A DNA stretch of 64,000 bases from Deltaproteobacteria bacterium (GTDB taxonomy: Bacteria > Myxococcota > Kuafuiibacteriia > Kuafuiibacteriales > Kuafuiibacteriaceae), in assembly GCA_040218735.1 (NCBI GenBank), contig JAVJQW010000067.1, positions 224,559 to 288,558 of the forward strand. Reading direction: 5' to 3'. This document shows, one piece after another, positions 4,701-36,395 of this stretch. Positions within the stretch are counted from its first letter, which is position 1. The number at the start of each line of letters is the position of its first letter. The position numbers and the translations under genes were made by a program. The notes beneath the pieces were generated by a model. That model made no database searches. It had not been told where the DNA came from and was given only the letters and a program-made list of their open reading frames with translations.

Positions 4701-6154
4701 CCGTCGCCCTCCGGGAGCTCGTCGACCTCTTTGGGAGGCTCCGGAGCGGGCGTCACCTCGGGGAGCGGTGGTGCGGGCGGAGGCGCCTCCTCGCGCACGA
4801 GCGGCGGCGGCGGATCAGACACCGGGGCCTCCTCCAGCTCGTAGCGCAGCGTCAGCCCCATCACGAAGATCGCCCCGCCCGCCGAGAAGTCACCGACGGG
4901 GTCGTTCCGATCCACCTTCTGATAACGCCGCTGCGGGACGTAGTGCAGCGCGCCGCCGAGATCGATGATCAGCGGGTTCTCGAGCGCGCCGAGCGGATCG
5001 AGGAACCGAACACCCGCCCCGAGCGAGAAGATGTGCGCGGTGGCGTCGACGTAGTTCGTCCCGGTCGTCTGCTGCGGCGCCGGCGACGGCCGCACCGCGT
5101 ACCCGCCGCGCAGCCCGAACGGACCGATGCGCTGCTCCGCCCCGAACCGCGCGGTGAGGGTGTTGCGGAACGCGAGGTCCACCGCCCGCTCCTGCCCCGG
5201 TGCCGGCGTGTCGAGCGCGTTGTCGAGGCCGGTCCCTTCGATGAGGTCGCCGCCGACGTCGATCGACGAGGTCACCGACGGGTCCGGCGCGCCCGACCAC
5301 ATCGCGTAGACGAGGTCCGCGCCGAAGAGCAGATCGATCGACTCCAACAGGTACGCGATCCCGAACGTGAGCTGGTGCGGCGTGTACTGCACGTTGAACT
5401 GCGTCGCGACGTACAGGTCCGCGACGCCCGTAATCCGCACGTCGACCGGCAACACCACGTCCGACTGGATCGACGCGCGGTACGAAGCCCCGACCCGAAG
5501 ACCGTCGAACGGGCGCGCCTCGATCCCCAACATCGGCGACGCGATCGGCGAGATGTCGAACGTCACCGACTTCTGCGAGAACCGCCCCGCCACCACGTCG
5601 AGCTCGTAGAGCAGCTCCCCCTCCAGGCCCGCGAGGATCTGCACCCCGGCGCCGATCGAGAGCCACTCCACCGGAAGCGCCGCGATGCCGAGCGTCGCGA
5701 CGATGCGCCGCGGGAGCGACTGGTACATGTACCAGTGCGGTGTCGCCGGATCGAGCGCCTGTCCATTCAGTAGACTGTCCGTCGGGACGTTCAGCGCAAG
5801 CCCCGCGACGACGCGGTTCCGGAAGCGCTGCCCGCCCATCGGGAACACCGCGCCGAACGTGATGCTGTTCGCGCTCGGCGGGTTGAGCTCCGCGACCTCG
5901 CGCTCCGCCTTCTCGAACTCGAAGGACAGCGCCGGCCGCGCGAGCATCAAGCCGAACCCGAAGCCGGGCTCGTCGGCGATCGTGAGCGCCGCGGGGTTGT
6001 AGTAGACGGCCGTGAAGTCGTCGGCCATCGCGGTGTGCGCGTTGCCCATCGCGATCGCGCGCCCGTTGAAGCCGAAGAGGTCCCAGGGGTTCGCGTGGGC
6101 GGTCGCCGGGACCAGCACCAGCGCGAGGGCGACCGCGTACCTCACCGGCCGCAT
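4697..6154 (-). CDS. FadL/OmpP1/TodX-like outer membrane transport protein
   Basis: Signal peptide, GRAIAMGNAHTAMADDFTAVYYNPAAL signature, amphipathic beta strands. Confidence 0.8.
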   Translation of the reverse strand: MRPVRYAVALALVLVPATAHANPWDLFGFNGRAIAMGNAHTAMADDFTAVYYNPAALTIADEPGFGFGLMLARPALSFEFEKAEREVAELNPPSANSITFGAVFPMGGQRFRNRVVAGLALNVPTDSLLNGQALDPATPHWYMYQSLPRRIVATLGIAALPVEWLSIGAGVQILAGLEGELLYELDVVAGRFSQKSVTFDISPIASPMLGIEARPFDGLRVGASYRASIQSDVVLPVDVRITGVADLYVATQFNVQYTPHQLTFGIAYLLESIDLLFGADLVYAMWSGAPDPSVTSSIDVGGDLIEGTGLDNALDTPAPGQERAVDLAFRNTLTARFGAEQRIGPFGLRGGYAVRPSPAPQQTTGTNYVDATAHIFSLGAGVRFLDPLGALENPLIIDLGGALHYVPQRRYQKVDRNDPVGDFSAGGAIFVMGLTLRYELEEAPVSDPPPPLVREEAPPPAPPLPEVTPAPEPPKEVDELPEGDG

Positions 6155-7305
6155 CCGTCGAGGAGCGTCACGACCCCCTCTAGCAGCTCGGTGACCACCT
6201 CGTCCTCGAACAGCTCCACGAGCACCGGGACGATCGCCTCGGCGTCGGGTGTGGACAGCAGGATCACGAGGAGCTCCCGGAGGTCGTCGCGGAGCGTGAG
6301 GTCCGTGCGGACGATGAAGACGACGTCCGCGAGCAGCTCGAGCTCACCGACGACCGCCTCGCTGGAGAGGAAGTCGGCGCCTTCGAGGATCGTCTCCAAC
6401 CCGACGCGCTCCGCGAACACGAGGTCGTACAGAAAGCCGATGATCGCGTTGCGCTGCGCCTGGTGCTGATTCCCGCAGCGCATCGCCCCCTGCAGCGGCA
6501 CGAGGATGTTCGCCTCCGGTTGCGTGACCTCGTCCAGCAGCGCCACGAACCGGCGGATGCGCGTCTCGAGGCTCGCGTCGACGTTCGGATAGACCGCGCT
6601 GTCGAGGAGCGTCTCCACGCGCGAAATCGCGAAGTCCTCGTCCGCGACGAACTGCATGATCTGGCCGATCAGGTTGACGATCGCCGGCCGCCCCGCCTCC
6701 GCGTTGCGCTCGAACTGCGTGAGGAACTCGTCGAGCATCGGGTCGCCGAGGAGGAGCTGCACCTCGTCGAGCAGCGCGACGATCCACGGCCCGCCGGTCG
6801 ACGGCGACTCGAACCGCAGCAGCATCTCGATCGCCGTGAGGAGGTGGTCGGGGTTACAGACCCGAACGAAGTGCGCCCCGGCGTCGAGCGCCTCGTAGCG
6901 CGCCTGGCCGTCGAGGCGACCGTCCACGAACTCCAGCGCCAGGACGACCAACGGCCCGAGCTGCGACTCGACCTGCTCACTCGCCGCGAGGTGCGCGACG
7001 TACGCGGTGTCGCTCAGCCCGAGCTGCTTCACCAGCCTCAGGAGCGCGTCGACGATCGTTCGAAACGAAGGGTCGGGCTGCGGGTTGGCGTCCGACGGGA
7101 GGAACCGGGCCTCGAGGACCTCGCGCAGCGGCGCGAAGCGATCCTCGCGCACGAACGCGAGCAGCTTCGGGAACACCGACTCCGTCGTCCCGCACGCCCC
7201 GACCTGCGTGGGGGCGTCGACCGGCGGCGCGGCGCGGTCCGTATCGAGATTGCAGGACGGCACGAACAGCGCCGCCACACACAACACGATCGCTGGCCTC
7301 CCCAT
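6142..7305 (-). CDS. hypothetical helical lipoprotein
   Basis: ATG 7305, MGRPAIVLCVAALFVPSC lipobox-like; stop overlaps start of the FadL-like gene. Confidence 0.7.
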   Translation of the reverse strand: MGRPAIVLCVAALFVPSCNLDTDRAAPPVDAPTQVGACGTTESVFPKLLAFVREDRFAPLREVLEARFLPSDANPQPDPSFRTIVDALLRLVKQLGLSDTAYVAHLAASEQVESQLGPLVVLALEFVDGRLDGQARYEALDAGAHFVRVCNPDHLLTAIEMLLRFESPSTGGPWIVALLDEVQLLLGDPMLDEFLTQFERNAEAGRPAIVNLIGQIMQFVADEDFAISRVETLLDSAVYPNVDASLETRIRRFVALLDEVTQPEANILVPLQGAMRCGNQHQAQRNAIIGFLYDLVFAERVGLETILEGADFLSSEAVVGELELLADVVFIVRTDLTLRDDLRELLVILLSTPDAEAIVPVLVELFEDEVVTELLEGVVTLLDGCGR

Positions 7306-7397
7306 TCCGCGCACGGAAGCGTGCACCCAACACGCGCTTCGATTCGCGGTCAACCGACACTCGACGGGCGTTCTTCACAGCGCTACCGTCCGCCGCG

Positions 7398-25172: not shown

Positions 25173-25247
<75 letters not shown>

Positions 25248-25293: not shown

Positions 25294-25542
25294 GGAGCGC
25301 CGGGTCCGACGAGCGCTCTGGGCCAGTCTTGGGCCACTTACACCTCGACGGATTCGAGACCGTCGTAAGTCGCACCGTCACGGAGCGGGCGCACGTAAGT
25401 CCCCGGCGGCGTCGTGCGACTTGCGGCGATCGCGGCGTAAGTCGGGCTGCGCGGCGACGTGCCGCGACGACTTGCGAGTCGAGCACCACGCCCAGGATCC
25501 CGCACGGATACCCGTCCAGCCGGCTCAGCTAGGAGTCGACAC

Positions 25543-26673
25543 GTGACGAGGAAGAACACCAAGAGACGAAGCAAGACCAACAAGCCCATCCAACACGGGA
25601 GCGCCTGGCGCATCCGCTGGACCGACGAGCACGGCAAGCGCCGTAGCGAGACCTTCGGCGATCGCGAAGACGCAGCGTTCCAGCTGAACCGCCGGCTCGT
25701 CGCGGTCGAGGAGCGAAGGCGCGGCCTACGAGCCTTGAGCCCCGCCCGGAAGACGTTCGCGGAGGCCGCGGATCTCTGGCTGGAGGTGAAGCACGCGAAG
25801 CGAAGCCTCGCCACCGACAGGAGCTTCCTCCGGTGCCACCTGCTCCCAGAGTTCGGCGACGTGGAGCTACGCGAGATCGGCGCTCGCGAGGCGGCGCGTT
25901 ACGAGAAGACGCGAGCGGGCCGGCTCGCCCCGAACACAATCTACCTCCACCTGTCGCTGCTGATCTCGATCCTCCGGTTGGCGCACCAGGAGGAGTGGCT
26001 CGGCAAGGTCCCGGCGATCAAGAAGCCGAAGCCCACGCTGAGGCAGCACACCGAGGTCGACGCTGCGGGCGTACCGCACGAACGCTTCCCGCACTTGGAG
26101 ACGCAGGACGAGATCCAGCGGTTCCTCGACGCCGCACGTGAACAGGACCCGCTGGTCTTCGTGCTCTACGCGGTGCCCATCTACTCGGGGCTCCGCCTCG
26201 GCGAGGTCTGCGGCCTGACGGTCGCAAGCCTCGACTTCGACGGTCGAGTGATGCGCATCCACCGGAGCTACGGCGGGCCGACCAAGACCGCGAAGAGCCG
26301 CGTCGTGCCGATCCTCGACCCCCTGCTTCCGCTCCTGCGCGCGCGGGCGAACCAGATCGGATCCGGGCTCCTCTTCCCGAACCAAGGTGGCGGGCTCCTC
26401 CGCCGAGACGCCCCCTACTTCCGCAAAGCCCGCTACTTCGGCCGCACGCTCGAAGCGGCCGGCTTCCCGGACGACTACATCACGTACCACGACCTGCGGC
26501 ACACGTTCGCGTCGCACTGGATGCGCAACGGCGGTTGCATCTACCGGCTCCAGAGCATCCTCGGACACAGCTCTCCAAAGATGACCCAGCGGTACGCGCA
26601 CCTGGCCCCGGACGTGTTCAAGGACGACCTCGACCGCCTGCCGAGCCTCCAGCCCGCTCTTCGGGCGGTGTAG
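25543..26673 (+). CDS. tyrosine recombinase / phage-type integrase
   Basis: AGGAG RBS and GTG; arm-binding WRIRWTDEHGKRR; catalytic R (GLRLGE), K (TKT), HDLRH, LGHS, TQRYAH. Confidence 0.95.
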   Translation: MTRKNTKRRSKTNKPIQHGSAWRIRWTDEHGKRRSETFGDREDAAFQLNRRLVAVEERRRGLRALSPARKTFAEAADLWLEVKHAKRSLATDRSFLRCHLLPEFGDVELREIGAREAARYEKTRAGRLAPNTIYLHLSLLISILRLAHQEEWLGKVPAIKKPKPTLRQHTEVDAAGVPHERFPHLETQDEIQRFLDAAREQDPLVFVLYAVPIYSGLRLGEVCGLTVASLDFDGRVMRIHRSYGGPTKTAKSRVVPILDPLLPLLRARANQIGSGLLFPNQGGGLLRRDAPYFRKARYFGRTLEAAGFPDDYITYHDLRHTFASHWMRNGGCIYRLQSILGHSSPKMTQRYAHLAPDVFKDDLDRLPSLQPALRAV

Positions 26674-26683
26674 CTGTTCTCCG

Positions 26684-28378
26684 TCAGAACTCCAGGTGGT
26701 GAACCGCTGCCGCCGCTGCCGCTTCCAGAGAGTTCTTGGCCTTCGCGAGGCGCCGCTCTAGCCGGTCGAGCAGCGCCCTTAGCTCGTCCACTTTGTTCGC
26801 GATTCGGTCCTGTTCGGCCGATGGAGGAACTGGCACGCGGATGAGTTTCAGCTTCTCCGCCTTGATTCCGGTGGCGGTCATTCCGGTCGCTCGTTCCGCC
26901 AATCTCGCCTGGAACCATGGACTGAGGAGCACCCACATCATGTAGCGCGTATCGATCGTGCCGTAGGGCTGGAGGTCGATGATGCGTTGAGCGAGTGCAA
27001 ACCGGTCCCCAATGTCGACCAACGCAGCCTTGCCCATCGGTGCCTCCGTCGTGAACAGGATGTCGCCGGGCCGTGGGATGCCGCGTGTCATCCACTCATC
27101 GTACGTTGAAGGCGCCACGTACTCGCGCGGTTCCTCTTTGACATAGCCATCGCGGACGTTCTTCGCCGTAATCAGCAGGACGCCGGATTCGGTCTTCCGC
27201 GGCGTCTTGCCTCGGTAGTCAATGAATCGAAAGAGGTCTTGGAGAGGAGCCCAGGCCCAGCCATTTGGAAGTTCGTCGGCCTCATGGAAGTCGGCACGGT
27301 CTCGTGCGAACCGCGCCTTCTTCTGTGCAAGCGCTTCTTGTCTTGCCTTCGCGACGTGCCCCAGCAACGTCTCTGCCGACTCGTCGTTCGGGTCCTGGGG
27401 CACGAGGCGCCCGCGTACCGCGAGCTGGAGAACGGTCTGGCGGAGGGGCTCGACATCGGCGGGGTCGGTGAACAGCTCGTGGATGTGGCTCGCGATGCGC
27501 GCCCAAGCAACCTCGACCTCCTCCGGCGTGTCGGCGTCCTGGAGTGCGGCGAGCGCGGCGTCCCGCAGCGCGGCGCGGGTGCCCTCGCGAGCGTTCCGAG
27601 CGGCCTCCAGCCGGTTGAGCAACCCCATCAGCTCATCGACCCGGCCAACAATGCGCCGCTGCTCAGCAAGAGGAGGAACCGGCAGCAAAGCTCGATTGAG
27701 CTTGGTCAGCGTTACGCGCTGGATTGCGCTGCCGGACATCGCACCACGGACTTGGTCGTAGAAGAACGGTGAGCGCATTGCCCAGCAGGCCCACCAGGCG
27801 TCGAACAGTCCACCGACCTTCAGGAGTCCTACGCTGGACAAGAGGCTGAAAGGCCGGTCCAGATCGTTCACGGTTACGACACCCGTCGTCGCTCCATCCT
27901 TGACGTAGAGCACGTCGCCAAGTTCGGGGTCACAGCGGGCGAATATCTCGTCGTGAACGTGGGTCGAAACGTAGGTGATATCGCGAAGCGACACACCGTC
28001 CTCCTTGATATTCTTCGCGGTAACGTAGAGGTGGTCACCAACCGGGCCATTGGGAGGAGAGTGATGCGTACCGTCGGAGATCTTGATGAAGAGTGTGCCC
28101 AGTCTCGCCCACCGCCAGCCCGGGGGTAACTCAAACTGGATATCCTCACCCGTAATGAGCGGCAGCTTCTTTGATCTACGAAGCCGACCCGCCTCCACGA
28201 GCGCAGCTCGACGCGCCTCTACCCGTTCTAGTAGGGCGGTTGCGGGCTCATCATTCGAGTGCTGAGCCACCAGCTTTCCGCGAACTGCAAGCTCAAGCAC
28301 CAGCTCGCGCACTCGCATGATGCCGTCAGCCGCCTCCGCCAGCTTGTCAAAGGCCGCGATCAGGTCGTGCGGCGTCAC
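26684..28378 (-). CDS. hsdS: type I restriction-modification specificity subunit
   Basis: GTG 28378 overlaps hsdM stop; two TRDs starting LPPGWRW / LPNGWAW, PVPPLAEQRRIV / PVPPSAEQDRIA, duplicated LAVRG(K/R)LV.Q..NDE. Confidence 0.93.
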   Translation of the reverse strand: MTPHDLIAAFDKLAEAADGIMRVRELVLELAVRGKLVAQHSNDEPATALLERVEARRAALVEAGRLRRSKKLPLITGEDIQFELPPGWRWARLGTLFIKISDGTHHSPPNGPVGDHLYVTAKNIKEDGVSLRDITYVSTHVHDEIFARCDPELGDVLYVKDGATTGVVTVNDLDRPFSLLSSVGLLKVGGLFDAWWACWAMRSPFFYDQVRGAMSGSAIQRVTLTKLNRALLPVPPLAEQRRIVGRVDELMGLLNRLEAARNAREGTRAALRDAALAALQDADTPEEVEVAWARIASHIHELFTDPADVEPLRQTVLQLAVRGRLVPQDPNDESAETLLGHVAKARQEALAQKKARFARDRADFHEADELPNGWAWAPLQDLFRFIDYRGKTPRKTESGVLLITAKNVRDGYVKEEPREYVAPSTYDEWMTRGIPRPGDILFTTEAPMGKAALVDIGDRFALAQRIIDLQPYGTIDTRYMMWVLLSPWFQARLAERATGMTATGIKAEKLKLIRVPVPPSAEQDRIANKVDELRALLDRLERRLAKAKNSLEAAAAAAVHHLEF

Positions 28379-29907
28379 GACGCCTCCCCAAGGAGCGCGT
28401 CCGCGAGCGCCTGCCGCAGCTCTTCGCGCAGCGCGGTCGCCGCAGCGCGCTCCTTCTCGAAGCGCGCCAGCAGCTCCTCCGGGTCCTCGTGCATGGCCTC
28501 GGGTGCCCGGGGGTTGGGGATGTCGAGGTTGAAGCCGCGGGCCCGGATGTCGTCGATGCTCACTCGCCAGGCGAGGTCCGTCTCCATCCGGTCGTTCCAC
28601 CACGCCTTCTCGGCCTCGAACTCCTCGATGCGCATCGGCTTGGTCTTCGAGTAGCTCTTGTAGCCCTCGGGGTACGGGTGCTCGTAGTACCAGACCTCCT
28701 TCGTCGGGCGGCCCTTCTCGAAGAACAGCACGTTGGTCTTGATGCTCGTGTACGGCGCGAACACTCCCTTGGGCAGGCGTACGATCGTGTGCAGGTCGCA
28801 CTCGGTCATGAGCCGTTCCTTGATGCGCGTCTTGACGCCTTCGCCGAACAACGTCCCGTCGGGCAGCACCACCGCGGCCCGGCCGCCCGGCTTGAGCCGC
28901 TCGATGATCAGGACCAAGAACAGGTCCGCGGTCTCTCGGGTGCGGAACTCCGCGGGGAAGTTGCTCTCGATGCCGTCTTCTTCCATGCCGCCGAACGGTG
29001 GGTTCGTGACCACGACCTCGACTCGATCCTTCATCGTGATGTCGCGGAGCGGACGCGCAAGGGTGTTGTCGTGCATGATGCCGGTGGGCACATCGATCCC
29101 GTGCACGATCATGTTGGTGACGGCGAGGAGGTGCGGAAGCGGCTTCTTCTCGACCCCCTGAATGCTGCCTTGAAGGCGTAGCTCCTGCTTGGCAGTCTTC
29201 ACCTCGCGAGCCCGGATGTGCTCGACGGCGCAAGCAAGGAAGCCGCCCGTGCCGCACGCCGGATCGAGCACCTTCTCTCCGAGGCGCGGGTTCACCATGT
29301 CGACGGCGAACTGCGTGACGGCGCGCGGCGTGTAGAACTCGCCGGCATTGCCCGCGCTCTGGAGGTCCTTGAGGATCTTCTCGTAGACGTCGCCGAAGAG
29401 GTGGCGGCTCGTCGCGCTGTTGAAGTCGATGCTGCCCTGGATGGCGTTGATGACCTGCCGCAGCAAGGTACCGGACTTCATGTACTGGTAAGCGTCCTCG
29501 AACACGCTGCGCACCAGCAGGCGGCGTTGGCGGAGCCGACGCGCGGCCTCGGCCTCCGCGTCGTCGCCTTCGATCTTGGGCCCCACCTCGATGTTCTTGA
29601 GGGCGGGGAAGAGCGTGCCGTTGGCGAAGTCGAGCAGCTCGTCCCCGGTCATCCCTTCGGGATCCTCGGCCCAGGCCGACCAGCGCAGGTCCTCGTGGGT
29701 CCAACTGTCGTTCGCGTCCTGCCACGTCACATCGACGAGAGGCGACTGGAAGCCCTCCTCGACGAGTTCCAGCTCCTTCTCGCGGTCGTTCCAGATCTTG
29801 AGGAACAGCAGCCAGACCATCTGGCCAATGCGCTGGGCGTCGCCGTCGACGCCGACGTCCTTGCGCATGATGTCTTGGATCGACTTGATCGTGGTGTTGA
29901 GCGACAC
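28375..29907 (-). CDS. hsdM: type I R-M N6-adenine methyltransferase subunit
   Basis: GEFYTPR, DPACGTGGF, TNPPFGG; IQDIMRKDVGVDGDAQR N-terminus (EcoAI/EcoEI-like). Confidence 0.96.
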   Translation of the reverse strand: MSLNTTIKSIQDIMRKDVGVDGDAQRIGQMVWLLFLKIWNDREKELELVEEGFQSPLVDVTWQDANDSWTHEDLRWSAWAEDPEGMTGDELLDFANGTLFPALKNIEVGPKIEGDDAEAEAARRLRQRRLLVRSVFEDAYQYMKSGTLLRQVINAIQGSIDFNSATSRHLFGDVYEKILKDLQSAGNAGEFYTPRAVTQFAVDMVNPRLGEKVLDPACGTGGFLACAVEHIRAREVKTAKQELRLQGSIQGVEKKPLPHLLAVTNMIVHGIDVPTGIMHDNTLARPLRDITMKDRVEVVVTNPPFGGMEEDGIESNFPAEFRTRETADLFLVLIIERLKPGGRAAVVLPDGTLFGEGVKTRIKERLMTECDLHTIVRLPKGVFAPYTSIKTNVLFFEKGRPTKEVWYYEHPYPEGYKSYSKTKPMRIEEFEAEKAWWNDRMETDLAWRVSIDDIRARGFNLDIPNPRAPEAMHEDPEELLARFEKERAAATALREELRQALADALLGEAS

Positions 29908-29933: not shown

Positions 29934-32270
29934 CTACGCGACGCTGCTGTACAGCTCGGATTCCAGGGCTCGCACGGCCTCGATGTACGCGTCCTTCCCG
30001 CCGAAGCTCTCGACCAGCTCGTACGCGGTGCCCAACTCCGACAGCGGGCGAACGCGAAGCACGCCGAGGTCCTCGACGCTAGGCAGGCCCTCATCGGCGT
30101 ACTTGTCGAGCAACGCGTCCAACACGCGCCGAGCCTGCTCGCCGTACTTCGTGAACACGTCCCGCTTGCGCACGTTCTCGGCGCGCTCACGCCGCGTCTT
30201 CGGGGGCTGTCCGTAGACGACGTGGCAGATCAAGTCGAAGGCGTCGTGGTCCCTGCCGACTTGCTCGTGTAGCTCTTCGAGGAGGAGCCCTTGCTCTCGC
30301 AGCTCGTCGATCACGGCCGCCTTCCGGTCGGCGCTGGACCAGCGCTGGAGGAAGTCGTTCAACGTGGCGTACTGCTCCTTGATCGTGTCGCGCGTGTACG
30401 CCTTCAGCGACTCCGTGATCAGCTTTCCGTCCTTGCCATAGAACTGCACCCGCTCGGCGACGACCGAGACCGTGACCCCGCTGACCACGTACTTCTTCGT
30501 TGGCTCGGTGGGATCGCCGGGCTCATCACCGCCGCCATCCGGGCCCGGCTCATCGGGCGGCACCGGCGAGCCGCCGCCGTCGGGCGCGAAGATGATCACG
30601 GGCTCCCCGTCGAAGTCCGGATCCGCGAACTTCTCCGTGGCTCGCTTGAAGTCCATGATCGTGAACCACAGCTTGCCCGCGTCCTCGTGGATGCGCGTGC
30701 CCCGGCCGACGATCTGCTTGAACTCGATCATCGACTCGATGCGCTGGTCGAGAACGATCAACTTGCACGTCTTCGCGTCGACACCCGTCGACAGCAGCTT
30801 CGAGGTCGTCGCGATCACGGGGTAGCGATGCTCGGGGTGGATGAAGTCGTCCAGCGCCCGCTTGCCCTCCTCGTTGTCGCCCGTGATCCGCACGACGAAC
30901 TTGCTCGTGTTGTCGGCCTCCTTCGGCATCTTGGACGCGACCTCGTTCACCAGGGCCGTCCGCATCCGGGCGGCGTGGTCGATGTTCTCGCAGAACACGA
31001 TGGTCTTGGCGTACGGGTCGGTCCCGAGAAGGTACGCGACGATCTTCTCGGCGACGCGCTTCGTACGTTCGTTGAGCACCAACACCCTGTCCATGTCGCG
31101 TTGGTTGTAGATGCGGTCCTCGACCTCCTGATCGAGGTCGTCGAGCATCCCCTTCGGAGGGCGCCACCCCTGGAGATCGCGATCGATGTCGATGCGCACG
31201 ACCTTGTAGGGCGCGAGGAAGCCGTCGTCGATCCCCTGCTTGAGGCTGTACTCGTAGACCGGGTTGCCGAAGTACGTGAGGGTCGAGACGTCCTTGGTCT
31301 CCTTCGGCGTGGCCGTAAGTCCGAGGTGGATCGCGCTGTCGAAGTAGTCGAGGACCTCCCGCCACGCACTGCTCTCCCGTGCGCTCCCGCGGTGGCACTC
31401 GTCGATGACCACCAAGTCGAAGAAGTCGGGGGAGAACTGCTTGTAGACGTTCTTCTCCTCCTCCGTGCCCGAGACGGCCTGGTAGAGCGCGAGATAGACC
31501 TCGTACGACGGATCCATGTTGCGGTTCTTGACCTTGGTCATGACCCCGCCAAACGGCTTGAAGTCGTTCGTGATGGTCTGGTCGGCGAGGATGTTGCGGT
31601 CCACGAGGAACAGCACGCGCTTGACCCGCTGGGCCTTCCACAGGCGCCAGATGATCTGGAAGACGGTGAACGTCTTGCCGGTGCCGGTGGCCATCACCAA
31701 CAGGAGCCGGTTGTCGCCCTTGGAGACCGCCTCGACGGTCCGCTGGACTGCGATTCGCTGGTAGTAGCGGACTTCCTTGCCGGACGCGTCCTCGTGGAAG
31801 GGCTGGCGAGCAAGAGCCTCGCTCTCTTCGGTCAGGCCCTTCCAGGCGCGGTAGCGGGCCCAGAGATCGTCGGGCGACGGGAACGCGTCGAGACTCAGCA
31901 CCTGCTCGATCGGCTCCGTCTGGCCGGTGCGGTCATGGAAGAGGAACGCGTCGCCGTTCGAGCTGAACACGAAGGGCACGTCGAGCGTCTCGGCGTAGGC
32001 AAGCGCCTGCTCCATGCCGCCGCCGACCGGGTGTTTGTTGTCTTTCGCCTCGACGATCGCGAGGGGGAGTTGCGCCGTGTGGAACAGCAAGTAGTCGGCG
32101 CGCTTCTGCTTGCCACGCACCGCGACCTGGCCTCGCACGATCACCCGGCCCGCGGTGAAGCTGTACTCGCGGCGTATCTGCGTCTGCTTGTCCCAGCCCG
32201 CCTGGGTGATCGCGGGCGTGATGAAGTTCTGGCAGACCTCGGTTTCGTTCATCTCCGACTTGATGATCAC
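29934..32270 (-). CDS. hsdR: type I restriction endonuclease subunit R (EcoAI/EcoEI-like)
   Basis: ADYLL..VEAK nuclease motif, MATGTGKT, DECHRG, LTATP, QIVGRGTR, EcoEI_R_C-like tail. Confidence 0.96.
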   Translation of the reverse strand: MIIKSEMNETEVCQNFITPAITQAGWDKQTQIRREYSFTAGRVIVRGQVAVRGKQKRADYLLFHTAQLPLAIVEAKDNKHPVGGGMEQALAYAETLDVPFVFSSNGDAFLFHDRTGQTEPIEQVLSLDAFPSPDDLWARYRAWKGLTEESEALARQPFHEDASGKEVRYYQRIAVQRTVEAVSKGDNRLLLVMATGTGKTFTVFQIIWRLWKAQRVKRVLFLVDRNILADQTITNDFKPFGGVMTKVKNRNMDPSYEVYLALYQAVSGTEEEKNVYKQFSPDFFDLVVIDECHRGSARESSAWREVLDYFDSAIHLGLTATPKETKDVSTLTYFGNPVYEYSLKQGIDDGFLAPYKVVRIDIDRDLQGWRPPKGMLDDLDQEVEDRIYNQRDMDRVLVLNERTKRVAEKIVAYLLGTDPYAKTIVFCENIDHAARMRTALVNEVASKMPKEADNTSKFVVRITGDNEEGKRALDDFIHPEHRYPVIATTSKLLSTGVDAKTCKLIVLDQRIESMIEFKQIVGRGTRIHEDAGKLWFTIMDFKRATEKFADPDFDGEPVIIFAPDGGGSPVPPDEPGPDGGGDEPGDPTEPTKKYVVSGVTVSVVAERVQFYGKDGKLITESLKAYTRDTIKEQYATLNDFLQRWSSADRKAAVIDELREQGLLLEELHEQVGRDHDAFDLICHVVYGQPPKTRRERAENVRKRDVFTKYGEQARRVLDALLDKYADEGLPSVEDLGVLRVRPLSELGTAYELVESFGGKDAYIEAVRALESELYSSVA

Positions 32271-32290: not shown

Positions 32291-32905
32291 ATGAGCGCCA
32301 TCGCAAGTCGCGGGAGTGACCAGAGCCCGAAGGATTCCGAGCACGCAACGGAGACCCATCCAAGTGCCAACGTCGCTGGTCTGGCGGGTGGGATCAAGTC
32401 TGTGGCCCAAGCCGACTTGCGCCGACTTACGGTCTGCGCCCAGAACCTACCCGTGGACCTCCGCGAGGCCGCCCGCCGCACTTACGTGATCGACGATTTC
32501 GACCGGTGGGACGAAGCGGTTCACCAGGCAGCATGTGACTTCGAATCGACGTTTGGCGCGTACCCGGCCCGGGCGGCCTTGCATCCGAGCACCTTGCGGC
32601 AGTTCGGATCCCGCGCAAGCCCCGAGCAACTCCGCGACGAGGACGGCGCCAGGCCGAACGAGCTGGACCTCGAGCTCCCGGGCGAACTCCGCGCCGAAGT
32701 TCGGGAATCGGCCGAGGCCGTCCCACTCCCGGACTTGAACGATGAGGAGGACGAGACGCAGCAGCAGACGATCGAGATCAATCCGACGCTGGTCTCCGCT
32801 CGATGCTCGGTCGATCACGATCGGAGCCTGCAGCCCCCTACGGACATCCCGCAACTAGGGCACGGGACGACTTGCTCCCGAGCAAGAACGACCTGGCGCA
32901 AGTAG
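32291..32905 (+). CDS. hypothetical protein (true start possibly GTG ~32453)
   Basis: Open frame; segment TYVIDDFDRWDEAVHQAACDFESTFGAYP looks protein-like; 5' part overlaps a repeated-motif region. Confidence 0.35.
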   Translation: MSAIASRGSDQSPKDSEHATETHPSANVAGLAGGIKSVAQADLRRLTVCAQNLPVDLREAARRTYVIDDFDRWDEAVHQAACDFESTFGAYPARAALHPSTLRQFGSRASPEQLRDEDGARPNELDLELPGELRAEVRESAEAVPLPDLNDEEDETQQQTIEINPTLVSARCSVDHDRSLQPPTDIPQLGHGTTCSRARTTWRK

Positions 32906-33916
32906 TCAGATGCTGTGCGTGGTTACGCGTCCGGCCCTGAGCAGCTCAAGCCATTGAGCCGACACCGCAGTGCTGTAGCCAAGGCCCTGGATGAGGTCCC
33001 TCTCGTGCTCCGCCAACGACGGGAAGAGATTCTCGGAGATGATCCCCACTACACGGCCGCGCCGATCCAGAACCGGCCCCCCGGAGTTTCCGCCCCGGAC
33101 GAGCGAGGACAGGACAAGATTCTCCGGCCGGTTGTGATACGACTGCGCGATTGCTGCAATCTCGGCCCGATGAGCGACCATCGTCGGATGCGCGTTTGGA
33201 ATCGGAGGGAAGCCGAGAACCACGACCTCTTCGAGTAGGTTCACACCATTCGCCGACGGGGCAAGGCGTTGCCTCTGTTGCGCCGGCAAGTGCACCAAGC
33301 CGATGTCCAGGTGCATATCGTCAACCGGATCTGCGACCGTCAATCCCTGGGCGGCCAACGAGTCCTGTTCACCGTCGAACTGCACGTGGATTGTTCCATG
33401 CTGTGCCAGGCCGTCGATAACGTGCGCGGCGGTCACCAGCAGATCGGGTCGCCACAGAAAGCCACTGCCTGCCCCCTCATGTCCCGGCACGTGCAGGAGC
33501 GCAGTAGCGGCACGCCGACTCCGCACCACACTCGCGGGCCCCTCGATGAACATCTGGTGCGAGCCCTCGGTGACGAGCTCCAACCCCAGAGCGGTGATCA
33601 TCCGAAACTCGGTGTTCGGTGCGTCATCCGCAACAGCGGGTGCGATCAGGTCGTGACGAAGAAGAACCGCGAACGTCCGCTGCAGAGTGCCACGGACTTG
33701 CTGGGCACTGCGCCCTTGCGCGAGACAGCGCTCCAAATGCCCGCGCGTGATCATGCTCGGGAAGAACGGGTCGCGCGGATCGTGGGCGCCGGGAGACGCC
33801 TGTCCGCGGTAGTTCACGCGAGACCATGCTTGCTGCATGGAGCCGTCGTTCAGCTGCTTCGCAGCTAGGAACTCCAGCACGGCTCCCTCCGGATCAGAAT
33901 CGAAGTTCAGGGGCAC
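32906..33916 (-). CDS. cytoplasmic trypsin-like (S1) serine protease with ~120-aa N-terminal domain
   Basis: GSGF, TAAHV (His), DIGL (Asp), GFP, GGNSGGP (Ser); no signal peptide, no PDZ. Confidence 0.88.
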   Translation of the reverse strand: MPLNFDSDPEGAVLEFLAAKQLNDGSMQQAWSRVNYRGQASPGAHDPRDPFFPSMITRGHLERCLAQGRSAQQVRGTLQRTFAVLLRHDLIAPAVADDAPNTEFRMITALGLELVTEGSHQMFIEGPASVVRSRRAATALLHVPGHEGAGSGFLWRPDLLVTAAHVIDGLAQHGTIHVQFDGEQDSLAAQGLTVADPVDDMHLDIGLVHLPAQQRQRLAPSANGVNLLEEVVVLGFPPIPNAHPTMVAHRAEIAAIAQSYHNRPENLVLSSLVRGGNSGGPVLDRRGRVVGIISENLFPSLAEHERDLIQGLGYSTAVSAQWLELLRAGRVTTHSI

Positions 33917-34149
33917 GGCCCGAAGCTGAGCACGACCCGCTCAACGACAAGCGCCTGGTGCCACATTTCGGTCTGATGTTCCCGCGTCAGCACTGAGCGC
34001 GCGTTGTGCTCGTCCGATGTTCCGAATGGAATCCGCCTTCCGCTGCCGTTTCCGGGCAAAGGCTGGCGATCCGCCTTCGTCTAGGCCGCTCGCGGTGCCC
34101 ACCCGACGACCGCGTTGACTCCGCGGCTTCGTGTAGTACTACTACCTTC

Positions 34150-35796
34150 ATGGCGGAAGAGCTCGTCCTGATCCTGCGCTTCCGAGACCTCGTCAATCCA
34201 ACGAAGGGCCACACCGTCGATGAGCACAACGAAGTGACCCGCAATGCCGGTTACGTCTGGTGGGGCTGGTGGAAGAAGCAGAACGAGGAGGTGCCCGTCG
34301 GCCTATGGAGCCAACTGGCCCGACAGATCGACAACGACGGAGCACGGGCGATTCTCCTCGACAGCGGCCAGCGGCGCCTCTTCGAAGCCCCGTTGCTCGC
34401 CATCGACTTCAAGCCGAACGTTGAACCGTTCACGGCTCCAGAGGACGGCCAAAAGACGTCCGCCTACTATGCCGGCGGGCCTTTTACGACATGGTTCAAG
34501 CTGGGCGAGATTCGCCCGCTTGCGGAGGCCGCGCTGAATGACCTGGTGTATGCCAAGGCGTCCGACATCGACAGCATCACGCACGACGATATCGTGCCGA
34601 CGTTCCCGCAGCTTGAAGGGACGCGCATCGTCAACGTGCGTGAGCTTCTCCAGTTTGGCAACGTCACGTACTGGATCGCAAAGCCGGCGCCCGACGGCAC
34701 TCCTGCGGTCGAGCAAGAGCGGATCTTCCCTCGGACACGGCTTGCACCGATCGCTCCGAAGGAGCCGGTCTTTGCCAACCTTCCTCGGATTCTCCACCTG
34801 AGTGATCCTCATCTTCACCCCGACTACCACCAGTTCAGCATCGGTGATGCGGACGCTCAGAACCCGACGCTTGCGTCGATCGTCTACGAGTCCCTGAAGC
34901 CGAAGGCACTCCCGGGTCTTGTAGTCGTCACCGGCGACCTTACATGGACCGGCACGAAGGAGGAGTTCGAGTTCGCGCGCGACTTTCTCGAAGACCTGCG
35001 GGCGCAACTTGGATTGCAGCGCGACCACTTCGTACTTCTCCCGGGCAACCACGACATTCAATGGAGCGAGCAATCAACGTCCGAATACGACTGGTCCAAA
35101 CCCGTTCGCGTTGCGGCTGACGTCGCGAAGGCGAACTATCGCGAGTTCCTGCAGCGCTGGTATCGGGTAGAGCCCAACCAATATCTGGCCGTCGGACGCC
35201 GCTACTTCGTCCGGGGCGCACCGACCCTCGATGTTGTTGGGCTCAACACCTCGGAGCTCCAGCAGGACCGGAATCACTTCGCGGGCCTCGGACGGGTGAC
35301 GGATGAGGCCTTTTCCCATGCTGTCGAGGAGATGAGCTGGTCAGAGGACATCCGCGGCGCGCAGCTCCGCGTGCTTGCGGTCCATCACCACATCCTCCCG
35401 GTGGTGCTGCAGGAGCGCGCAAGCGACTCGCCGCGCGGATTCGGCATTTCGCTGGACGCGGGGCTTCAGATTCGAAGAGCCGCGGAGTTCGGTGTCGACC
35501 TGGTGGTTCACGGCCATCAGCATCACCCGCACTACGGATACGTGAGGTCTGAACCGAAGCCCAACAGCCCAAGCAGGGGAGTCCTGGTCCTCGGGGCTGG
35601 AAGCTGCGGGGTCCGAGACGACCACCTCGGTCCTATCCGGAAGCGGCAATTCAACCTCATCACACTTCATCGGAACGCGGTCGAAGTTGATTCTTATGTC
35701 CAGGAATCGGGCGACAACCGATTCAGACCAACTCGCAAGCTGGTCGGCTCGACGGCAGCGGGCTGGCAACTGCCGCAGAACGAAAGGTCGCAGTAG
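34150..35796 (+). CDS. calcineurin-like metallophosphoesterase with N-terminal aromatic-rich (putative PUA/EVE/YTH-like) domain
   Basis: All five motifs: LHLSDPH, VTGDLT, PGNHD, VHHH, HGHQH; N-terminal ~190 aa containing HNEVTRNAGYVWWGWWKK. Confidence 0.88.
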   Translation: MAEELVLILRFRDLVNPTKGHTVDEHNEVTRNAGYVWWGWWKKQNEEVPVGLWSQLARQIDNDGARAILLDSGQRRLFEAPLLAIDFKPNVEPFTAPEDGQKTSAYYAGGPFTTWFKLGEIRPLAEAALNDLVYAKASDIDSITHDDIVPTFPQLEGTRIVNVRELLQFGNVTYWIAKPAPDGTPAVEQERIFPRTRLAPIAPKEPVFANLPRILHLSDPHLHPDYHQFSIGDADAQNPTLASIVYESLKPKALPGLVVVTGDLTWTGTKEEFEFARDFLEDLRAQLGLQRDHFVLLPGNHDIQWSEQSTSEYDWSKPVRVAADVAKANYREFLQRWYRVEPNQYLAVGRRYFVRGAPTLDVVGLNTSELQQDRNHFAGLGRVTDEAFSHAVEEMSWSEDIRGAQLRVLAVHHHILPVVLQERASDSPRGFGISLDAGLQIRRAAEFGVDLVVHGHQHHPHYGYVRSEPKPNSPSRGVLVLGAGSCGVRDDHLGPIRKRQFNLITLHRNAVEVDSYVQESGDNRFRPTRKLVGSTAAGWQLPQNERSQ

Positions 35797-35797
35797 C

Positions 35798-36211
35798 ATG
35801 AAATGGACTCTAGTCATTCTTGAGACCCCCTTCCGTGGAGCCGGCTCGTCACCGGAAGAGCGCGCGGCGGATGAGGCGCGGAAGGTGAGCTATGCGCGCG
35901 CTTGCATGCGCGATTGCCTGCTGCGCCACGAGGCACCGTACGCCTCACACCTTTTGTACACCCAGCCAGGCGTGCTCGATGATCGTCTCGCCTCCGAGCG
36001 TTCCATGGGAATCGATGCCGGCCTTGCTTGGGGAGAAGTGGCTCAGCGAACCGTCGTGTACGAGGACCTCGGTATTTCGGAGGGGATGCATCTCGGAATC
36101 GAACGCGCGAGACGTGAAGGGCGTAAGGTCGAGTTCAGAACACTCCCAGACTTTGATGTCCGCGAGGACGACAGAACCGACGAGCCCGCGAAACAGGCTT
36201 CCGCAACCTGA
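35798..36211 (+). CDS. small nucleoside 2-deoxyribosyltransferase-like protein (DUF7768/DUF4406-like)
   Basis: VILETPFRG..YARACMRDCLLRHEAPYASHLLYTQ..LDD..ERSMGIDAG..W..DLGISEGM; starts 1 nt after the phosphoesterase stop. Confidence 0.75.
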   Translation: MKWTLVILETPFRGAGSSPEERAADEARKVSYARACMRDCLLRHEAPYASHLLYTQPGVLDDRLASERSMGIDAGLAWGEVAQRTVVYEDLGISEGMHLGIERARREGRKVEFRTLPDFDVREDDRTDEPAKQASAT

Positions 36212-36348: not shown

Positions 36349-36395
36349 TGAATGGCATTCAAGAGGTCGTCGGTTCGATCCCGATTGGCTCCACT
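36349..36395 (+). repeat. attR core (47-bp tRNA-Ala 3' fragment)
   Basis: Identical to 25201-25247; upstream sequence is not tRNA-like. Confidence 0.95.

Follow-up and report, generated by a model that had tools for sequence, protein, structure and literature searches.

What does a small protein of a chiefly phage-borne family do in the place where relatives of an anti-phage effector carry a HAD phosphatase? The question is raised by two genes at positions 34,150–36,211 of a 64,000-nucleotide stretch of DNA (the window; contig JAVJQW010000067.1, positions 224,559–288,558 of the forward strand, assembly GCA_040218735.1) from a deltaproteobacterium of the Myxococcota. Both genes belong to an 11.15-kb integrative defence island in a tRNA-Ala gene, where they occupy the right end, and are referred to here as gene 1 and gene 2:

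34150–35796, + strand: gene 1, a 548-residue MisA-like protein with a PUA-like sensor domain (residues 7–180) and a calcineurin-like phosphoesterase domain (residues 213–460)
35798–36211, + strand: gene 2, a 137-residue DUF7768 protein with a predicted nucleoside 2-deoxyribosyltransferase (NDT)/DNPH1 fold, in the slot that the HAD protein MisB occupies in relatives

We favour, at somewhat less than even probability, the reading that these two genes form a variant of type I Metis (PUA-Cal), with DUF7768 standing in for MisB and clearing basal N6-methyl-dAMP (m6dAMP). The part assigned to DUF7768 would be read from a single locus. In the accessible portion of their preprint, Osterman et al. describe the Metis effector MisA as a PUA-like domain joined to a calcineurin-like domain, which is activated by m6dAMP and converts NAD+ to NMN and AMP (bioRxiv 10.1101/2025.11.05.686725). 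The same portion reports that MisA alone protects, and that MisA without its partner slows growth. For PUA-Cal-HAD, which has the same architecture, the accessible text of Zhang et al. describes an m6dAMP-triggered filament and dNTP depletion, with PUA-Cal and its partner acting as a two-enzyme cascade in which PUA-Cal yields dNMPs (bioRxiv 10.64898/2026.01.15.699771). As far as these texts extend, the role of the partner is disputed, being basal m6dAMP clearance in one preprint and the first step of a dNTP-destroying cascade in the other.

Gene 1 and its coupling to gene 2

Judged by its sequence, gene 1 has diverged within the MisA/PUA-Cal family (type I Metis, DS-9) but is intact. The protein matches the Pfam families Pua-like (PF24405; residues 7–180, E 1.4e-30) and Metallophos (PF00149; residues 213–460, E 2.5e-17), and the NCBIfam profile DS9_1_antiphage ('anti-phage phosphoesterase') at 372.7 bits over profile positions 1–480 of 486. 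We take type I Metis to be the DS-9 system of DefensePredictor. A machine-learning screen is cited, unnamed, in the accessible part of the Metis preprint (bioRxiv 10.1101/2025.11.05.686725). All five metallophosphoesterase metal motifs of gene 1 are intact (D219/H221, G262-D263, G299-N300-H301-D302, H412-H414 and G455-H456-x-H458), and the five are invariant across an alignment of seven sequences. Among 1.84 billion cluster representatives, gene 1 has 163 relatives at E <= 1e-30, the best of them 48% identical, and its identity to PUA-Cal proteins with a HAD neighbour is 25–47%.

The m6dAMP contacts named for the ECOR28 PUA-Cal protein in the accessible text of Zhang et al. are F9, R10, H23, W35, W38, K40, Y100 and Y101 (bioRxiv 10.64898/2026.01.15.699771). 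These eight residues align to F11, R12, H26, W38, W41, K43, Y106 and Y107 of gene 1 and are invariant in the seven-sequence alignment. Across 50 diverse homologs (27–47% identity), R12, H26, W38 and W41 are invariant, F11, Y106 and Y107 are conserved in at least 90%, and K43 in less than 90%. The residue numbering of the published contacts is matched exactly by a MisA from an E. coli plasmid, which has a HAD partner and adjoins Hachiman. From these conserved contacts, m6dAMP sensing is the best prediction for gene 1.

The initial annotation, made by a model from the letters of the window alone, had pointed to an N-terminal domain with the motif GYVWWGWWKK, fused to a phosphoesterase with five calcineurin-like motifs, and had likened gene 1 to the Metis sensor. 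The motif lies at residues 34–43, the fusion is borne out by Pfam and the seven-sequence alignment, and the likeness to Metis by the DS9_1_antiphage match and the eight conserved contacts. The Pua-like match over residues 7–180 agrees with the kind of N-terminal domain that had been expected. The comparison drawn with YTH and EVE domains holds only as an analogy between families; it is the PUA-like domains of MisA that are directly related. On the whole, the earlier interpretation was largely right for gene 1 and its context, and is plausible for gene 2.

The geometry of the two genes, also as first annotated, is that of an operon. The TAG stop codon of gene 1 (35794–35796) is followed by a 1-nt spacer and then the ATG of gene 2, and a Shine–Dalgarno-like GAAAGG lies within gene 1, 10 nt 5′ of that ATG. 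Co-translation of the two genes is therefore indicated. A consensus scan of the final 1.2 kb of gene 1 turned up no promoter-like site, though such a scan says little in this organism. Gene 1 itself likely starts at the ATG at 34150 rather than at an upstream GTG at 34006, because alignments with homologs begin at that residue. Co-folding of the two proteins gave a score of 0.00, which speaks neither for nor against binding.

Gene 2, the partner slot and DUF7768 in phages

Seven non-plasmid PUA-Cal relatives were inspected, of which six are intact, and a HAD gene adjoins PUA-Cal in five of these six (loci L001, L002, L035, L036 and L037). The two closest inspected relatives of gene 1, at 44% and 43% identity, both bear a HAD, as does the E. 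coli plasmid copy. No HAD is encoded on the island according to Pfam annotation of its genes, and a search with the HAD of L002 found no MisB-like match in the source genome (96.5% complete), in which PUA-like and DUF7768 genes occur once each. On the most parsimonious view, the HAD present in an ancestor would have been lost, and DUF7768 now occupies the slot; a partner different from that of published Metis is what the initial annotation had considered possible. At the sixth intact locus, L005, a DPPW-motif methylase upstream (4884–5993) overlaps the start of PUA-Cal (5986–7392) and there is no HAD. In the seventh relative (L004:5995–7459), PUA-Cal is split into two overlapping open reading frames (ORFs) with transposase genes on either side, and is probably a broken copy. 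A further locus, L003, has a PUA-only gene with a HAD beside it.

Plasmids of Rhizobium and Agrobacterium carry a further arrangement, in which PUA-Cal lies near adenylosuccinate synthetase and has a convergent neighbour of 182–184 residues (L236:4470–5021, − strand; L238:4220–4765, − strand). This neighbour gives weak Pfam matches to YfbR-like 5′-deoxynucleotidases (25.6 and 22 bits, against a cut-off of 25.9) and has visible H...HD...D motifs, whose likeness to YfbR we in part presume. With YfbR-like HD neighbours on plasmids, the PUA-Cal slot can therefore hold unrelated dNMP-degrading folds. If this holds, three unrelated mononucleotide-degrading folds (HAD, HD and NDT-like) would occupy the slot beside PUA-Cal. 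The adenylosuccinate synthetase context of PUA-Cal is also noted by Zhang et al. in the accessible text (bioRxiv 10.64898/2026.01.15.699771).

Gene 2 belongs to Pfam DUF7768 (PF24963), with 88.2 bits against a cut-off of 26 (E 4.7e-25). Two PHROGs match as well, phrog_24212 and phrog_355 (the second annotated as 'nucleoside 2-deoxyribosyltransferase'), and there is no match in PADLOC or NCBIfam. The family is large and well conserved, numbering 1930 proteins of comparable length at E <= 0.001, and gene 2 retains all 22 invariant columns of a 36-sequence family alignment. The invariant set includes E9, D39, S50-H51, Y54, Q56, D62, R68, Y88, D90 and S94, of which E9, D39, D62 and D90 are the invariant acidic residues. 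Read on the AlphaFold2 model (pLDDT 88.2; confident over residues 1–116 and not over the tail), the conserved residues lie at the C-terminal ends of strands.

When the model was compared with 48,161 PDB representatives using VIA-align, the top match was 1t1j (Z 12.7), a DUF1937 protein of unknown function. NDT structures followed (6evs, Z 10.9; 7o62, 10.7; 8rh3, 10.2; 1f8x and 1s2d, down to 9.1; 6qai, 8.8), together with the CMP N-glycosidase MilB (9.2) and Rcl/DNPH1 (8.6), and TIR/ThsB proteins scored lower. Foldseek ranked the same families first, with 1s2d best at E 1.2e-3 and no match at or below 0.001. The model thus assigns gene 2 a predicted NDT/DNPH1 superfamily fold, as the initial annotation had suggested from resemblance. 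The 75 longer homologs include fusions of DUF7768 to Guanylate_kin, AAA_17/18 kinases, the NT5C deoxynucleotidase and an RNase_T exonuclease. We read gene 2 as a protein that probably binds (deoxy)nucleoside monophosphates or acts on them enzymatically.

DUF7768 is carried mainly by phages, and is found in at least 580 viral stretches of IMG/VR and in 329 of 50,697 cultured phage records. From the former, 80 loci (L118–L197) were sampled, leaving 77 after de-duplication. Its most frequent immediate neighbours on viral contigs are DNA methylases (17 N6_N4_Mtase, 6 MethyltransfD12, 2 Dam and 1 MT-A70; n = 150), families that were tallied separately, so that one protein may count twice. By motif, a methylase lies at +1 or −1 in 19 of the 77 loci, whereas three to six genes away on either side the total is 3 of 397, under 1%; the positional profile is 13/73 at −1, 6/76 at +1 and 6/71 at −2. 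The motif (D/N)PP(Y/F/W), which is of the N6-adenine type, is present in 18 of these 19 adjacent methylases. Most of them end within 10 nt of DUF7768, and examples of a methylase preceding it, often with gaps of 3–10 nt, are L136:3399–3998, L141:3330–3995 and L181:3498–3998. After clustering, the link persists in 14 of 57 clusters at 80% identity and in 6 of 21 at 70%; no probability is given for the association because related phages are not independent.

Other viral neighbours of DUF7768 are ThyX, dCMP deaminase and a dATP/dGTP diphosphohydrolase domain. In Vibrio phage 1.149.O, the gene after DUF7768 (L230:2833–3243) has a dATP/dGTP diphosphohydrolase N-terminal domain (PF18909), which places DUF7768 in a nucleotide-pool-editing gene cluster. 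A 'metallo-dependent phosphatase-like' neighbour in the same phage was set aside, as it has no Pfam match and no similarity to gene 1. Stand-alone calcineurin-like phosphoesterases are rarer neighbours, met with in several unrelated phages. Vibrio phage Vp670 (25 bits; L242:912–1925) and Salmonella phage St162 (21.2 bits; L240:910–1938) have one immediately upstream of DUF7768, and 3 of the 77 viral loci (L156, L183 and L192) have one at +1 or −1. No similarity of the phage phosphoesterases to gene 1 was detectable, and BLASTP found none between the phosphoesterase-like neighbours of Vp670 and St162 or of Vp670 and 1.149.O.

The tRNA-Ala island and the role of gene 2

The island is delimited by a perfect 47-bp direct repeat, of which one copy (25201–25247) is the 3′ part of a tRNA-Ala gene and the other (36349–36395) is 100% identical to it. 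Gene 2 is the last island gene, 137 bp before the right repeat. Integrase, repeats and coordinates place the two genes, 1 nt apart, at the right end of an integrative element, in agreement with the initial annotation. The other features are:

25173–25246, + strand: tRNA-Ala (GGC), the integration target, whose 3′ part forms attL (ARAGORN)
25459–26673, + strand: tyrosine integrase (Pfam Phage_integrase, E 7.7e-26)
26684–28378, − strand: hsdS, type I specificity subunit (Pfam Methylase_S; PADLOC Specificity_I, E 1.1e-119)
28375–29907, − strand: hsdM, type I N6-adenine methyltransferase (Pfam N6_Mtase, E 1.8e-77; PADLOC MTase_I)
29934–32270, − strand: hsdR, type I restriction subunit (Pfam ResIII, EcoEI_R_C and HSDR_N; PADLOC REase_I, 1110 bits)
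32906–33916, − strand: 336-residue protein with a trypsin-like protease domain (Pfam Trypsin_2, E 2.6e-16)
36349–36395, + strand: attR, the second copy of the 47-bp repeat and the right end of the island

The type I restriction–modification (R-M) system is complete, and its HsdM, with an NPPF motif at residue 302, lies between the same repeats as gene 1, which supports the co-mobilisation claimed at the outset. The 336-residue protein has an N-terminal stretch of 140 residues with no assigned domain, its protease part gives PADLOC matches to those of the defence proteins RT-Protease_XI, PDC-M35A and LmuA, and 233 bp separate its gene from the divergently oriented gene 1. The island may have in it a third gene for defence. 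Between hsdR and this gene lies a 204-codon ORF (32291–32905, + strand) with no Pfam, PHROG or PADLOC match. G+C content falls from approximately 0.69–0.71 outside the island to 0.62–0.65 inside. G+C at third codon positions (GC3) is mosaic, at 0.91–0.92 for hsdM and hsdR, 0.74–0.75 for hsdS, the protease gene and gene 1, and 0.65 for gene 2. An empty-site test with the right flank as query against five relatives returned short, weak matches only, without synteny.

The proposed mechanism would run as follows. Adenine methylases would mark the chromosome, among them the island HsdM and other genomic candidates; the genome has 4 N6_Mtase, 3 D12-class and 3 N6_N4 matches, two of the N6_N4 matches being neighbouring halves of a single gene. 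Breakdown of this adenine-methylated host DNA by a lytic phage would raise m6dAMP. By homology, the PUA pocket of gene 1 would bind m6dAMP, and its phosphoesterase would destroy NAD+ and/or deoxynucleotides, leading to abortive infection. Gene 2, made in step with gene 1, would hold basal m6dAMP under the threshold by cleaving or sequestering it, such that gene 1 stays silent without phage. In this scheme the ligand and the substrates are predicted, as are the part played by gene 2 and the protection against phage, and the basal-clearance step is the weakest; position, fold, fusions and the methylase link are what point to it.

Several results weigh against this scheme. For gene 1, 372.7 bits is below the DS9_1_antiphage equivalog cut-off of 420, and PADLOC v2 (2023), one of the checks suggested with the initial annotation, did not recognise the pair, giving only weak PDC-S60 matches for gene 1 and none for gene 2. 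For gene 2, the DUF7768 profile has no match among PDB sequences, and hhalign against six PF05014 members gave a probability of 0.65% and no usable profile alignment. The nucleophile of NDT and DNPH1 enzymes is a Glu in a D-x-G-T-x-x-E-x-G type motif, which is present in the six PF05014 members, and for which neither inspection by eye nor profile alignment mapped a conserved DUF7768 counterpart. The DUF7768 loop after the third strand reads D90-L-G-I-S94-x-G96-M-x-x-G100, with no conserved Glu. None of the 75 longer DUF7768 homologs is fused to PUA or Metallophos domains. Lastly, the methylase link is weak in metagenomes (4 of 76 loci by motif; 3 + 3 of 132 neighbours by Pfam).

The pairing itself is a singleton. 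Among 401 genomes of the phylum, PUA-like genes occur in 4 and DUF7768 in 20, and the two are adjacent only here. The pairing is present at 0 of 23 other loci in the phylum, and across all 20 genomes of the class a PUA-like gene is found only in the source genome. PUA-Cal is likewise found at 0 of 80 metagenome and 0 of 80 viral DUF7768 loci. No second pairing was found among the 6 loci from a genome-contig search with the gene 1 protein, or seen on plasmids (21 records matched by the same query, five inspected), and viral contigs yielded no relatives of gene 1 to this query. At L009 and L012, the closest DUF7768 relatives in the phylum (53–54% identity), DUF7768 stands amid small genes with no assigned function, and nearby is an ORF with the N-terminus MKTLRFGIEIET... 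that is presumably amidoligase-like; there, DUF7768 looks like mobile-element cargo rather than a defence gene.

The single occurrence speaks for the leading alternative, which we consider unlikely: that gene 1 is a stand-alone Metis-type effector, and gene 2 is unrelated cargo of phage origin at the edge of a mosaic island, serving nucleotide salvage or having no defence role. DUF7768 is overwhelmingly a gene of phages and mobile elements, and the GC3 of gene 2 is below that of gene 1 (0.65 against 0.75), so that separate origins of the two genes are possible. MisA alone is reported to protect, and gene 2 is therefore unnecessary to explain defence; PUA-Cal genes with no HAD also exist, as at L005 and in the phrase 'naturally HAD-lacking variants' that appears in the accessible text of the PUA-Cal preprint (bioRxiv 10.64898/2026.01.15.699771). 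However, the 1-nt gap and the internal Shine–Dalgarno-like site indicate co-translation, gene 2 stands exactly in the position of MisB in relatives, the accessible Metis text reports slowed growth for partnerless MisA, and DUF7768 is linked to adenine methylases in its own right.

That last link suggests a wider form of basal clearance by DUF7768, which we regard as doubtful: DUF7768 may be a dedicated m6dAMP remover, either a hydrolase or a sponge, in both camps, acting as a Metis safety valve here and as an anti-Metis factor in phages. Phage DUF7768, which lies beside Dam-like methylases in about a quarter of sampled viral loci, would keep the alarm nucleotide low during host DNA degradation.

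Less likely again is that gene 2 is a co-effector, which would cleave the glycosidic bond of gene 1 products (NMN, AMP or dAMP), making NAD+ or dNTP depletion irreversible and blocking resynthesis by the phage. The products reported in the accessible preprint texts, NMN and AMP for MisA and dNMPs for the PUA-Cal cascade, would suit this role, and the modelled fold of gene 2 is that of NMP and dNMP N-glycosidases. The phosphoesterases beside DUF7768 in Vp670, St162 and 3 of 77 viral loci suggest a recurrent phosphoesterase-to-DUF7768 pathway, and such a neighbour fits a pathway partner as well as a safety valve, a further point against basal clearance. However, the phage phosphoesterases lack detectable similarity to gene 1, an unregulated NMN or dNMP hydrolase would be costly, and the methylase association is left unexplained. 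It is highly improbable that gene 2 serves methylation by removing a by-product or inhibitor of adenine methylases, such as S-adenosylhomocysteine (SAH), and supports the island HsdM here: viral DUF7768 is tightly coupled to methylases of the N6-adenine type, most of which end within 10 nt of it, but gene 2 is coupled to gene 1, hsdM lies approximately 6 kb away on the other strand, and the domains fused to DUF7768 include dNMP kinases and a deoxynucleotidase rather than enzymes of S-adenosylmethionine or SAH.

Relation to known systems

Metis and PUA-Cal were described only in 2025–2026, and the present locus is a variant seen once. Replacement of the HAD by an NDT-fold protein could discriminate between the two partner models of the preprints: a protein of N-glycosidase or binding type could plausibly remove a mononucleotide signal and is unlikely to be a dATP γ-phosphatase. 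If true, the swap of the HAD for unrelated chemistry would favour a partner that clears the signal over a dNTP phosphatase co-effector, and it hints at a second way of handling a methylated-nucleotide alarm signal. The coupling of DUF7768 to N6-adenine methylases gives a widespread phage family a concrete candidate function, independent of the source locus, and points to a possible enzymatic counter-defence against methylated-nucleotide sensing. This link in phages may outweigh the locus itself in importance.

The main text of both preprints does not mention DUF7768, deoxyribosyltransferases or glycosidases, and their supplementary tables may already include PUA-Cal loci with DUF7768 or 'DrHyd' partners. 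A full-text literature search found no occurrence of DUF7768 or PF24963, and a search combining PUA-like, calcineurin, deoxyribosyltransferase and anti-phage (at least 3 of the 4 terms) returned nothing beyond the Metis and PUA-Cal preprints. No enzymatic counter-defence against methylated-nucleotide sensing was found in the literature searched, and denA escape is the only counter to Metis listed in the accessible part of a 2026 editorial. The accessible text of the PUA-Cal preprint also mentions PUA fused to 'DrHyd' as effector (bioRxiv 10.64898/2026.01.15.699771).

The nearest known system is type I Metis. As in that system, gene 1 has the MisA architecture with a conserved predicted m6dAMP pocket and a conserved metal site, and heads a two-gene operon with a small, putative nucleotide-enzyme partner on a mobile defence island. 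Unlike Metis, the partner is a predicted NDT-fold DUF7768 protein, whereas MisB is a HAD phosphatase; gene 1 is only 25% identical to the E. coli plasmid MisA, scores under the equivalog cut-off and is known here from sequence alone.

Type III Metis, as predicted in the accessible text of Osterman et al., pairs a MisA homolog with a methyltransferase, MisD (bioRxiv 10.1101/2025.11.05.686725). The MisA homolog described here is likewise accompanied by an N6-adenine methylase, a possible writer of the signal, but this methylase, HsdM, belongs to a complete type I R-M operon that is encoded on the other strand, 4.2 kb from gene 1, and shares only the island with it. L005 is the nearer example, as it looks like the predicted type III arrangement without a HAD; a gene for a C-x-x-C-motif protein lies further upstream of its DPPW methylase.

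Within the NDT superfamily (DNPH1/Rcl, MilB and 1t1j), gene 2 has the same predicted α/β fold, but it has no sequence-level match and the canonical nucleophile Glu was not mapped. The PUA-Cal loci of Rhizobium and Agrobacterium differ in that the partner is YfbR-like HD, lies on the opposite strand and would act where the likely ligand is another modified adenine nucleotide. They resemble the present locus in that a small, predicted dNMP-degrading enzyme other than a HAD flanks PUA-Cal.

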